64,000 nucleotides of DNA. Origin: Vermamoeba vermiformis (taxonomy: Eukaryota). The position numbers and the translations under genes were made by a program. Within the stretch, counting starts at the first letter, position 1; every line of letters starts with the position of its first letter. Under the pieces are notes generated by a model, which made no database searches, was not told the origin of the DNA, and saw only the letters and a list, made by a program, of their open reading frames with translations. Positions 50,855 to 55,237 of this stretch are shown here, piece by piece. The stretch covers positions 62,001 through 126,000 of the forward strand of contig JBEWZL010000083.1 of the NCBI GenBank assembly GCA_045837725.1, written 5' to 3'.

Positions 50855-51158
50855 TTAATTAGCTAAATGTTGATTCTCATTAGAGTCAGCAGTACAATTA
50901 TTATTTGTATTATCGGGAGTCAGGGGCTGCTTTTCTGAGTGCTTTGGTGAGGGAACAGTTGGATCTGAGGCTGGATTTGTCTTGATCATTAATTGTGCTG
51001 GGCTGTATCGCTGGAGGTTCATATTGAGAAAATTGGGATTTGCCACTTCGTCTCATATACACTATAAAAGGCTTAGTTAAGACTTTAAATCGAGAATCTT
51101 TAATTAAGGGCTGGTCTTTGACGCCAAATCCTTTTGTCAAAAGCTTACTTGCAGACAT
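50855..51158 (-). CDS. SGK-motif micro-protein, copy A
   Basis: atg tct gca a|gtaagc..tag|tg gives MSAMYMRRSGKSQFSQYEPP; stops at 50910 as sequenced, but the paralogue-like tail (KTNPASDPTVPS..NNN) continues in another frame to 50855. Confidence 0.7.
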
Positions 51159-51429
51159 TTTTGCGCCGCTCAATTATTATCAAATACAAAGGTTGTTAAA
51201 TTGTGGTTGCTCCTTCTAGAGAGCTTAAGAATGAGAAATGAGAAATTATTAATTTTTTTTGTTGTTTATTTAAGGCCGCCAGCCTCGGTCCAGATAAGCA
51301 TGACTTCCTTAATCTGCATCAATACATGTTGTTAAGTTGCTTGTGAGCATTGCTGTCGATACACAACGGGCTTTATCTACATCATCGTTAAAAGTACTTC
51401 TTTGCCTGGTCGTCGAGGCGAGAACCGAA

Positions 51430-51682
51430 TTATTTCTCGTTGATTTTATTATTATTAGAATTTATCCCATTTTTTGGCATGGCTGTCTGCTCTTGCGAAG
51501 GAATTTTAGATCCTGATTCTGGATTGGACTTTTCTTGCGTTTCGTCATTTTTTGGTTTATTCTCTACTGGTGGATTGTAACTATTGAATTCATATTTACC
51601 ACTTGTGCTCTTGTACACTGCGACGATTATCAATCAATTACGAGGTAAACACAGCTTTTGGATGTGGCTACTTACTTTGCAT
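51430..51682 (-). CDS. SGK-motif micro-protein, copy B
   Basis: atg caa a|gtaagt..cag|tg gives MQMYKSTSGKYEFNSYNPPVENKPKNDETQ... Confidence 0.75.
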
Positions 51683-51920
51683 TTTGGATGTTTATCGACT
51701 AACGAAGATAATCTATGTTATTTGCTCTCTATTCTGGTGATGGAATTAAAAACTTTTGTGGGCGATGGAATTTTCTCTCTGAGAATCAGGACCAAAGGAT
51801 GACATGGGTTTATTACAAGCCGTCAGCCGCGCTCCATCTAAGCATGACTCTATTAACCTACATCAATGTGTATTACTTAACTAGTGTGAACGGATTGGCC
51901 GTCAAGACAACAGACGTTTT

Positions 51921-52227
51921 CTACATCACTTCAAAGTTCTTTGCCAGGTCGTCGAGGCGAGCACCGGAGTTATTCTCGTTGTTTTTATTATTATTATTAG
52001 AATTTATTCCATTTTTTGGCATGGCCGTCTGCTCTTGCGAAGGAATTTCAGATCCAAGGCCAGAATCCGGGTTGGACTTGAATTGCGTTTCGTCGTTTTT
52101 TGGTTCATACACCACTGGTGGCTTGTAACTATTGAATTGATATTTACCACTGGTGCTCATGTACACTGCAGCGATTATCAATTTTACTGATGTAAACATA
52201 GCATTGGAGGTGCTACTTACTGTGCAT
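51921..52227 (-). CDS. SGK-motif micro-protein, copy C
   Basis: atg cac a|gtaagt..cag|tg gives MHMYMSTSGKYQFNSYKPPVVYEPKNDETQ...LAKNFEVM. Confidence 0.78.
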
Positions 52228-52402
52228 TTTGGACGTTTATTGACTAACGAAGATAATTTATGTTATTGGCTCTCTATTCTCGCGATGGAATTAAAAACTT
52301 TTGTGGTGTGGACATTTTCTCGCTGAGAATCAGGACCAAAGGATGACACGGGTTTGATTTTCCTCAATGAGCAGAGTAGCGTGTAATATTGAATAGGTTG
52401 AA

Positions 52403-52463
52403 CTCAACCAGGTCTCTCGCGGTGTATTATACCATAAAAGGACTGCGGGTGGACCTGGTTGAG
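52403..52463 (+). ncRNA. Intergenic hairpin, candidate small-RNA precursor
   Basis: ctcaaccaggtc pairs perfectly with gacctggttgag and is extended by tctcgcggt/actgcgggtg (G-U pairs, one bulge). Confidence 0.3.
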
Positions 52464-52592
52464 GTCCGAGGCAAATTCACAAAAAAAATGCCCTCCGTTT
52501 CGCCGTTACAAAGTATAAATATTTGACGATATTGTACTATCAGTTCAATTACCAACAACAATACAAGTCAACCTTATCTAATACTTAACGCT

Positions 52593-53583
52593 ATGGCAAC
52601 CATCTTTGTATTCGGCGCAACTGGAACCGTTGGATCGCACGTCGCGAAACAACTCGCGGACAAAGGCATCCATTTCAAAGCTGGTGTGCGCGATGCTGCT
52701 AAGGGCGAAGAGCTTAAGAAGAAGTACGGAGATAAAGTCGAACCCGTCATCGTCAATCTCTACGACCAAAATTCGTTGGATGCGGCTTTGAAGGGGATCG
52801 AGAAGGTCTTCTTGGCGACTCCTCCTGGTAAATTCTCGTTGAAATTTCGCACAATGTCATGTTATACTAACGTCTATACCATAGGACAAACCATTGTGCC
52901 GTGCCAGAATGTCGGTCAGGCAGCTAAGAGTAAGTCAAATGCTGCAGTCGACCATAACATTATTGAACTGTTTTGTAATGACCTGTTGTTCAGAGAACGG
53001 CGTGAAGCACATTGTGAAGTTGTCCGCGCTGGGCGCTGAAAATCCAGACAAGTTCTGGTGGGCCGGCGAACACACGAAGACAGAGGCAGCCTTGAAAGAG
53101 TTAGGCCTCGCATTGACTTCTATTCGCCCGTCAGGATTCTACTCGAACTTCATCAATATGAGTGCACCGACGATCAAACAACAAAAGAAAATCTTCCAAG
53201 CCATGGCTGATGCCAGAGCGAACTTCATCTACAACGGCGACATTGCTGCTGCTTCAGTAGTGGCTTTGACGACCCCTGGACACGAGAATAAGGACTACTA
53301 TATTACCGGTCCCGATACTCTCAGCTATCCTCAAGTCGCGGATCTGTTCAGCCAAGTGCTCGGTGAAAAAATTGAATACGTGCCAATAGATGACGCCACT
53401 CTCCGTGAAAATGCAAAGAAAAGATTTCCTAATCAGGAAGCTGTCGAAGGCTACTCGAACATGTGGCAATACTTCCGCGACGGCTATTATGACGTGCACT
53501 ACAGGGACTTGGAGAGCTTGACCGGATCTAAAGGCAAGCCACTCAAGGACTGGATTCAAGAGAACGTCGCTGCATTCAAATAG
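52593..53583 (+). CDS. NmrA-like atypical SDR oxidoreductase
   Basis: IFVFGATGTVG, ALKGIEKVFL, GVKHIVKLS, SIRPSGFYSN, DIAAASVVAL, YYITGPDTLSY; two introns. Confidence 0.92.
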
Positions 53584-53643
53584 GCGATAGGACTGCTGAC
53601 TGTATTTGAAAAGCAAATTTAGTAATAAAAATACAGGTCCGTC

Positions 53644-54905
53644 CTATTGTTTGAACGGATTCTCTTTCAAAAATTGCGGTGTTTGTAGATTGACCACTGG
53701 TGTCGCGGGTGTTTGAAGAACAGCCATCACGGGTGTCTACATTATAATAATAATATTAATCATTATATTATTATAAGTGCAGGTGTTTTACTGTACCTTT
53801 TCCATGGCAACCTCAACGGTCAATTTTTTCTTCGCTGGAACGGCAGGAGTGACTCCCATAACAAAATCTTCAAATAGGTGTCAGTGCTAGTATATTATAT
53901 TATTAGGTGAATACGATTGTACCTTCTAGCATTTTATCGATGACTGGTGAAGTTTCGACTTCCAACACGGAGTTCGGCAGCACGGCGTGTGAGTTCAATA
54001 ACAAGGCGACAATATCTTCGTGTTGATACGCGACTGCAAAGTGACTGTAGCGCGGTGTTAATAGGCTGATAATGGACGGTGAGACTGCAGTGACTTACAG
54101 TGGCAAGTAGTGCTCTTTGGTCAATGCGTTGACATTTGCTTTGTGGTCAATAAGGTACTTAACGATGTCTAGTGAGCCTGATTGAGCTCCATAGTGCATG
54201 GCTATAATATGACAGTGTTATGAGCTCGCCAAACTGAGCACTAAGTACGAGATGGAGGTACCTGACTGGCCTTCGGAATTCGACTTGTTTACGTTTGCAC
54301 CTCGATCCTATTAATCACATTATAAGTATAATGATATTTATAGAAATATTTTTAGCAAATTAGATCATTAAATGTTTCGGTAACTTACCACGAGTAACTT
54401 GACCAGGTCGAAATTGTTTGTATTGATGGCGTAATGTAATGCTGTTATGGAATTAGAAGCCGTGTTTAATATACTATTAATGTACCTGTTTGACCGCCAG
54501 AATTCTCAACGTCAATTTGAGCGCCAGCATCCAACAATAAAGTAACGATTTCAGTTCGGCCTGTCAAAAAATCAGAAAAATATCGCTTATATTGGATAAA
54601 ATACCTTCTTGAACGGCGAAATGAAGAGGTGTTTTCCCTTTTTTATCTGGTGCGTCTAATAATTGTTTGTTTTTTTGGCAGATGTGCTCAATAAGCAACT
54701 TAACGACTTCAATATGTCCCTCTATACATGCGTAGTGTAAAGCAGTTCCTACACTAGGGAATTAATGCCTAAATTCCATTTGTAACTGACAAAACTTACG
54801 CTTGTCAACTGCATCTCGCTCAATTAGCGAGTAATTAGCTTCTAATAGCTTTTTTACATTATCTATATTTCCAGATTTGCATGTTTCAATTAATTGTAGA
54901 CTCAT
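53644..54905 (-). CDS. Ankyrin-repeat protein
   Basis: Spliced repeats TALHYACIEGHIEVVKCL, GKTPLHFAVQEGRTEIVTLLLDAGA, ALHYAINTNNFDLVKLL, AMHYGAQSGSLDIVKYLIDHKA. Confidence 0.9.
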
Positions 54906-54973
54906 TGCGTCTTCTTTACTCTCGTTCAAAAAATACAAGTAAATACAAGGATCCTTTAGTAGAACTAAGCCAG

Positions 54974-55237
54974 CTATTGTGATAAATTGCTTAGGGCATT
55001 AAACTTATTTTTCGAGCTTGTCGTATCACTGCTGGTATCTGATTTAACATTTTCTTTGACGTTTCGTGCTTCATCTGACGCTTGCGGCCGCTGATCAGCA
55101 CCGTGATTTACAAGCTTTGGAGGTTCATATTCACCGAAGTGTTCTTTACCACTAAATTCCATATACACTGAAATAGACAATCGTCAGATCTGCTCTAAAC
55201 TAATCGTAGAGGTTGCTTAAAACTTACTTTCGGACAT
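54974..55237 (-). CDS. SGK-motif micro-protein, copy D
   Basis: atg tcc gaa a|gtaagt..cag|tg gives MSEMYMEFSGKEHFGEYEPPKLVNHG...NALSNLSQ. Confidence 0.75.

Follow-up and report, generated by a model that had tools for sequence, protein, structure and literature searches.

Several small enzyme regulators are largely disordered and carry one conserved motif each: endosulfine/ARPP-19 has FDSGDY, PKI a pseudosubstrate and 4E-BP a YxxxxL-phi motif. Here we describe four small two-exon genes, A, B, C and D, on the minus strand of a 64,000-nucleotide stretch of Vermamoeba vermiformis DNA (contig JBEWZL010000083.1, positions 62,001 to 126,000; hereafter the window, to which all coordinates refer). 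The genes lie within 50855-55237, with ATGs at 51158, 51682, 52227 and 55237, and very probably form a real, spliced and constrained protein family. Like the three regulators, the family falls in the range of 50-120 amino acids, is largely disordered and has one short conserved module with the rest poorly conserved; stoichiometric binding would be the favoured model for it. It differs from them in having no Pfam match (11 of 11 members), in the extreme N-terminal position of the module and in its signature, and whereas the three regulators are pan-eukaryotic, its distribution is very narrow.

Two further described systems bear comparison. Hydrophilins are defined by a hydrophilicity index above 1, that is a grand average of hydropathy (GRAVY) below -1, and by more than 6% glycine. 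With these and the late embryogenesis abundant (LEA) proteins the window family shares extreme hydrophilicity, predicted disorder, small size and multi-copy genes, but it has no repeated segments and no Pfam LEA or dehydrin match, and its glycine content lies close to the threshold. The fungal MSDIN genes are likewise tiny and easily missed by gene finders, and encode a conserved N-terminal part ending in proline followed by a variable remainder. However, MSDIN cores are 6-10 residues long as against tails of 33-64 residues in the window family, which also has no conserved follower or second proline, and no processing enzyme was found among the 10 open reading frames (ORFs) scanned.

The gene structures were read directly from the sequence and parsed by script. 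In all four genes the first coding exon is 7-10 nt long and ends in A, the donor is GTAAG and the AG acceptor is followed by TG, so that splicing joins the final A of exon 1 to TG and creates a second Met codon. Gene A starts in an AAAATG context with exon 1 ATGTCTGCAA (51149..51158); its 87-nt phase-1 intron (51062..51148) begins gtaagctt, ends ttttatag and is open in frame, and exon 2 (50910..51061), which starts TGTATATG (read as TGTATA), comprises 49 codons and a stop in the window's own frame. Exon 1 of gene D (ATGTCCGAAA, 55228..55237) is followed by a 60-nt intron (55168..55227, gtaagttt to tatttcag) with in-frame stops, and by exon 2 (54974..55167, 63 codons and a stop), which starts with the same TGTATATG (TGTATA). 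In gene C, exon 1 (ATGCACA, 52221..52227) precedes a 55-nt intron (52166..52220, gtaagtag to cgctgcag) and an exon 2 of 80 codons and a stop (51921..52165) that starts TGTACATG (TGTACA). Gene B has exon 1 ATGCAAA (51676..51682), a predicted 58-nt GT..AG intron (51618..51675, gtaagtag to cgtcgcag) that is placed by homology to C and not from reads, and an exon 2 of 61 codons and a stop (51430..51617), which starts TGTACAAG (TGTACA) and is truncated relative to that of C.

The exon-2 translations begin YMRRSGKSQFSQYEPP in A, YKSTSGKYEFNSYNPP in B, YMSTSGKYQFNSYKPP in C and YMEFSGKEHFGEYEPP in D, and share the motif Y-x3-SGK-x2-F-x2-Y-x-PP. Counting the three or four residues ahead of the first full codon of exon 2 (MSAM, MQM, MHM and MSEM), the products are approximately 53-83 residues long. 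The original prediction, which was made from the sequence alone, had described these two-exon genes with A/TG introns and a second Met, and both the structures and the exon-2 strings match the sequence. It had put the polar tail at about 40-60 residues; measured after PP, the tail has 33 residues in A, 45 in B, 64 in C and 47 in D.

To what extent could such an arrangement occur by chance? When the 64 kb are translated in all six frames, the peptide pattern SGK..F..Y.PP has four matches, every one at genes A-D. A DNA pattern that combines an AG acceptor, TG and the motif likewise matches four times, against a mean of 0.00 over 100 dinucleotide-preserving shuffles, and we therefore conclude that the four-gene pattern is not due to chance. 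Relaxing the search to a looser, shorter pattern with one mismatch retrieved the same four copies only, against 0.03 expected. A plus-strand ORF of 138 codons (51712-52128) lies antisense to C and to the spacer between B and C. No feature of the family appears in its translation and it was rejected; the ends of the C intron, described below, place this gene on the minus strand.

Splicing is supported by a public sequencing run, X1, whose Logan contigs lie on the region with approximately 94-97% identity (12 differences over 200 nt at A, 9 over 178 nt at C and 9 over 270 nt at D) and thus come from a relative; the 'RNA' label of this run is a guess, and none of the runs recorded as RNA was found to contain the region. 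One contig joins 51061 to 51149 in gene A, skipping 87 nt with an unambiguous shorter side of 57 nt. Others join 52165 to 52221 in gene C (55 nt skipped, shorter side 32 nt) and 55167 to 55228 in gene D (60 nt skipped, shorter side 31 nt). At all three joints the skipped stretch is bounded by CT..AC as read on the plus strand, equivalent to GT..AG on the minus strand. The X1 contigs also lack both GT..AG introns (52827-52883 and 52930-52993) of an NmrA-like gene that lies between C and D on the plus strand (52589-53598), and X1 depth is zero over intergenic bins such as 52404-52567. Since the NmrA-like introns are absent and the intergenic depth is zero, X1 behaves as complementary DNA of a close relative. 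Three raw RNA-seq runs (X9-X11) gave 23, 28 and 37 reads, none of them on the four micro-genes; these come from a more distant source and are hence uninformative on expression. All were less than 99% alike to the window, nearly all 90-95%, and were placed on the ankyrin-repeat, NmrA-like and peptidase genes.

Public protein sequences cross the same junction. P0007 starts MSAMFMNRSGK and P0009 contains MSEMYMEFSGK, in each case with the exon-1 residues that the window genes predict, so that splicing at the A/TG junctions is seen both in the joints of A, C and D and in translated relatives. In P0010, MNMSE is followed by 22 extra residues (S...V) and then by YMEFSGK. Near-identical genes underlie P0009 and P0010, which represent the spliced and the unspliced reading respectively, and the additional S...V stretch corresponds to a 63-nt intron at the A/TG position. 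It can be seen that, since P0010 reads through an intron at this very site, the intron position is kept in a more distant relative, although the tail there is no longer D-like. The original prediction had highlighted the intron within the Met codon, but it is simply an inherited phase-1 position common to the paralogues, and no special mechanism is involved. The gene A intron contains 29 codons without a stop, so that an unspliced messenger RNA would still yield the module after a 29-residue insert. The intron that is read through in P0010 is likewise open, and its translation has QP.I and LTK in common with that of the gene A intron; in the latter, LTK is encoded by TTAACTAAG, which is branch-point-like in appearance when set beside the branch-point consensus.

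Relatives of the four genes were sought by three word-index searches and one exhaustive hidden Markov model (HMM) search of 1.84 billion representative proteins. Gene C alone as query retrieved only P0001, a C-like protein of 77 residues that is 92% identical to it; its 'MY' start is best read as a GTG, made of the acceptor G and TG, that was called by a prokaryote-style gene caller. A five-sequence profile added the close D-like relatives P0002 (92%) and P0003 (79%). The HMM search returned five proteins at E<=0.001, three of which are family members: P0001, P0003 and the new member P0006 (MNRSGKALFEEYEPP), which has the exon-1 residues MSA of gene A. The other two, P0004 (2135 residues) and P0005 (1682 residues), match the tail part of the profile in 12 and 7 stretches, and were taken as probable low-complexity matches. 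An eight-sequence profile then added P0007 (MSAMFMNRSGKTLFGEYEPP), again with MSA as in A, and the distant D-like proteins P0008 (VYMEFSGKEHFEPYEPL), P0009 (NMSEMYMEFSGKEHFEPYEPL) and P0010. The profile scores of P0008-P0010 are E 0.38-1.0 only, and they were accepted on the near-identity of the first 16 module residues to those of D. Owing to its intron read-through, P0010 was excluded from alignment A4; it was included in A5.

The relatives P0001-P0003 and P0006-P0010 come from NCBI, JGI and Logan sources, where they are unnamed ORFs or carry the JGI label 'hypothetical protein', and no name, family or published description was found for them. In most of them the start is placed at the internal Met, or else at the GTG that the acceptor G makes with TG, so that exon 1 is missing. 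The description of the family as hidden in the original prediction was overstated, the relatives being already public as unnamed ORFs. Two near-identical metagenome contigs (L001 419-468 and L002 827-876) both encode MYDVKCGKHKFLLYVPP, with Cys in place of Ser, in a 26-codon ORF (MYDVKCGKHKFLLYVPPLIRWLLCRI) with a hydrophobic tail; these were taken as chance matches. The degenerate motif pattern used on metagenomes demanded Tyr first and Pro-Pro, and genes like P0006-P0010 would escape it. A scan of viral contigs gave no matching stretches. The family is narrowly distributed and restricted to a few related organisms.

We next consider how conservation is distributed along the protein. Across 11 sequences the module can be written [YF]-[MKR]-x-x-S-G-K-x-x-F-x-x-Y-x-P-[PL], in which S, G, K, F, Y and the first P never vary; a single K of the tail is likewise invariant, and a T and an N column of the tail are nearly so. 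The original prediction that copy D shares little beyond the motif was accordingly too strong, a faint similarity of the tail being kept in these three columns. Among the window copies, the eight invariant residues (Y1, S5, G6, K7, F10, Y13, P15 and P16) show no non-synonymous changes, and five of the eight use different synonymous codons (TAT/TAC twice, GGC/GGT, TTT/TTC and CCT/CCA). Genes A, C and D are only 29-37% identical to one another and are thus old paralogues. When D is compared with P0009, 13 of 16 motif residues are identical as against 7 of 28 alignable tail residues; for A and P0007 the figures are 10 of 16 and 3 of 8. These observations bear out the selection on the motif that had been proposed from the sequence. 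For the B/C pair, 8.25 synonymous and 12.75 non-synonymous differences in 61 codons yield a ratio of non-synonymous to synonymous rates (dN/dS, Nei-Gojobori) of 0.31. The two genes are 88.6% identical in exon 2, 74.5% in the intron and 89.8% in the 130 nt upstream, and since upstream identity matches that of the exon, this comparison alone is weak evidence of constraint. We propose to define the family by an N-terminal [YF]-x3-S-G-K-x2-F-x2-Y-x-P, a phase-1 intron in the preceding Met codon and a polar tail of 33-64 residues. All four window genes conform to this definition, the intron position being backed by the X1 joints in three of the four and by the P0009/P0010 pair.

The products look intrinsically disordered and very hydrophilic, as judged from composition and from structure prediction. 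Of 12 family proteins scored, 11 have a GRAVY below -1 (-1.10 to -1.82), the exception being P0010 with its read-through (-0.81), and the residues P, E, S, Q, K, N, D, T and G make up 61-84% of the family proteins. Reading of the translations revealed no hydrophobic or signal peptide-like stretch in the window products. AlphaFold2, run on P0007 with the 11-sequence alignment, gave a mean predicted local distance difference test score (pLDDT) of 63, a predicted template modelling score of 0.17 and no secondary structure; the top ten-residue block (pLDDT 78) comprised residues 11-20, which is the motif. These results agree with the disordered polar tails of the original prediction.

No known family was recognised, as had been anticipated there. 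Pfam-A searches at E<=10 came back empty, both with the four window proteins and with all 11 aligned members, a profile search of PDB chains returned two unrelated long enzymes at best (E 0.33 and 2.2), and the best score for D against the ESM Atlas was 0.87, which is below a meaningful level. Six family heptapeptides are printed in no paper of the literature library, which was checked by those strings only. The family is described in no public profile library and, by these libraries and the heptapeptide text search, is undescribed.

The four copies differ in their state. Genes B and C are a tandem duplicate of two approximately 544-nt units (51264..52355, minus strand), each with one gene and approximately 130 nt of conserved upstream sequence, and the repeat families D1-D6 and D12 within the duplication are spaced at 539-548 nt. 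The shared upstream sequence contains CATCCTTTGGTCCTGATTCTCAG and may be a promoter or 5' untranslated element. In gene B, a change to AAA TAA introduces a stop 19 codons before that of C, and C-like sequence runs on beyond it. Gene A had been predicted to stop at 50855, but the window frame stops at 50912-50910, and 50855 is reached only with one base absent at approximately 50973. At 50973 one nucleotide is missing from the X1 contig; without this base the gene A frame continues through a longer tail, ASDPTVPSPKHSEKQPLTPDNTNNNCTADSNENQHLAN (50855..50971), to a TAA at 50857-50855; the window stop is 18 codons earlier. This longer tail resembles those of B and C. It agrees with the C tail at 15 of 32 aligned residues, whereas the window-frame tail does so at 7 of 18. 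The extra C at approximately 50973 either stems from an error in the assembly or marks a genuine frameshift of gene A in this organism.

Could these genes encode no functional protein at all, being spliced non-coding RNAs or decaying copies whose similarity reflects recent duplication? The truncation of B and its zero depth in X1, the frameshift of A in the window and the B/C identities, as high upstream (89.8%) as in the exon (88.6%), would be expected on this account. However, the old paralogues A, C and D still keep the module, the invariant residues change synonymously only, relatives of the A and D types keep both the module and the MSA or MSE exon-1 residues despite changed tails, and the X1 relative of C is distinguished by an in-frame deletion of 3 nt. 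Taken together these points make a non-functional origin extremely unlikely. It is also highly improbable that the genes are diverged members of a characterised family missed by profiles, for example a small disordered phosphatase- or kinase-inhibitor family. Short disordered proteins do readily escape profile searches, and a match over the motif only, some 16 positions long, would fall short of significance among 10^9 proteins, so that a distant kinship at the level of the motif might have gone unnoticed. Against such membership, Pfam is empty at E<=10 for every member, no PDB sequence falls below E 0.33, the family heptapeptides are absent from the literature library, and FDSGDY of endosulfine occurs neither in the motif nor in the family sequences.

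The main rival explanation is that the products are hydrophilin- or LEA-like protectants, with a dehydrin-like N-terminal segment, that act in bulk and physico-chemically in dormancy, desiccation or stress. Their hydropathy and composition would suit this role, as would the lack of predicted structure and the clustered, multi-copy genes that include a recent tandem duplicate. However, in place of repeated amphipathic segments the proteins have one motif, present once, in which S-G-K, F, Y and P are invariant, and the Pfam LEA and dehydrin models match none of 11 members at E<=10. Glycine, counted by eye, amounts to 5 of 80 residues in C (6.3%) and 3 of 63 in D (4.8%), close to the 6% criterion. 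We consider this role unlikely. A further alternative is that, as in RiPP precursors such as the MSDIN family, the proteins are precursor peptides, in which the N-terminus is a leader that a processing or modifying enzyme recognises and that ends at the invariant Pro, while the tail, or part of it, is the released product. The order of a conserved N-terminal and a variable C-terminal part, the invariant Pro at the end of the module, and an Xaa-Pro aminopeptidase gene adjoining A are in keeping with processing. The aminopeptidase is, however, an exopeptidase and a housekeeping enzyme, and the 10 ORFs scanned, which make up a part of the window genes, included no cyclase, prolyl oligopeptidase or methyltransferase. 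In addition, the window products have no hydrophobic stretch resembling a signal peptide, the alignment has no second conserved cleavage site, and the tails are long and polar, with Cys only in A. A precursor function is thus very unlikely.

The explanation that we favour, at somewhat below even confidence for the statement as a whole, is that A-D are paralogous genes for small disordered cytosolic proteins with a docking N-terminal module. Translation would start at the ATG in the 7-10 nt exon, and removal of the phase-1 GT-AG intron would place a second Met directly before the module. The 16-20 residue module would serve as a binding element, either a short linear motif or one that folds on binding, by which the proteins dock to a conserved partner in the cell; three aromatic anchors, an invariant S-G-K and a proline cap are the make-up to be expected of a fold-on-binding peptide. 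The polar tail might be a variable effector, a spacer or a phospho-regulated part, with different tails on different paralogues, and the proteins would act as small stoichiometric regulators, adaptors or competitors of the partner. We favour a regulator or adaptor because the module outlasts the rest of the protein and the paralogues carry different polar tails; the docking mechanism itself is put forward tentatively.

A number of observations weigh against parts of this explanation. The docking mechanism is drawn from one pattern in the sequences, that of a conserved short module joined to a divergent disordered tail. The invariant K and near-invariant T and N of the tail indicate that the whole protein may matter. 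Within the module, the first Tyr is replaced by F in P0007, the next position holds M, K or R, and the second Pro is Leu in P0008-P0010. Over the 16 motif codons of B and C, dN/dS is 0.56, from one synonymous and three non-synonymous changes, a value that is uninformative alone. The transcript evidence consists of contigs of a relative, 94-97% identical and of guessed RNA nature, and not of transcripts from the window's own organism, and the coverage of gene B in X1 is 0. With B truncated and without transcript support, and A frameshifted, two of the four copies may be decaying.

The genes on either side give no reason to link them functionally with A-D. An aminopeptidase P/Xaa-Pro peptidase (M24) gene at 49751-50760 on the plus strand is convergent with A, and its best PDB relatives are aminopeptidase P chains (E ~9e-30). 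In the NmrA-like gene, the X1 differences are mostly spaced in multiples of three, as for a diverged, constrained orthologue. The stop of D (54976-54974) lies 68 nt ahead of the ATG (54905) of an ankyrin-repeat gene on the same strand (approximately 53645-54905), which has many short introns. The X1 contig for D runs to 54898, 7 nt inside the ankyrin-repeat coding sequence, which implies that the 3' untranslated region of D overlaps the start of the next gene or that the two are co-transcribed. Elsewhere in the window, long open frames on the plus strand encode a histidine kinase with HisKA and HATPase_c domains (1664-2704), teneurin-type EGF repeats (7147-7941) and leucine-rich repeats (26798-28093), a set of genes that points to a protist or a fungus-like eukaryote. 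With the EGF-repeat ORF as query, the ESM Atlas returned EGF clusters dominated by animals, which is uninformative. A tRNA-Cys (GCA) at 37314-37390 on the plus strand is the sole tRNA and the sole Rfam match at the gathering threshold.

Lineage-specific small disordered proteins are common, and the family described here, while undescribed, is of this familiar, lineage-restricted kind and only moderately surprising; it does not address long-standing open questions. Reading of the raw sequence recovered four micro-genes that start in exons of 7-10 nt; genes with such tiny first exons are cut short or overlooked by prokaryote-style callers and by many eukaryotic ones. In its boldest form, which we regard as doubtful, our explanation would make A-D a new class of eukaryotic micro-regulators, whose module would be a docking motif, so far absent from motif catalogues, that engages a conserved component of signalling or proteostasis. 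The module would then present aromatic anchors at positions 1, 10 and 13, the invariant SGK and a Y-x-P-P/L end, which by comparison with known motif classes might be a ligand of a proline- or phosphotyrosine-recognition domain. Candidate partners would include a phosphatase subunit, as well as domains that recognise proline or bind phosphotyrosine. The clear signature of a single conserved module and a disordered tail makes the family a tractable pull-down candidate for a new peptide-domain interaction. If the micro-regulator reading is true, different tails would deliver different outputs from the same module, and the cluster would be a set of interchangeable adaptors or competitive inhibitors.

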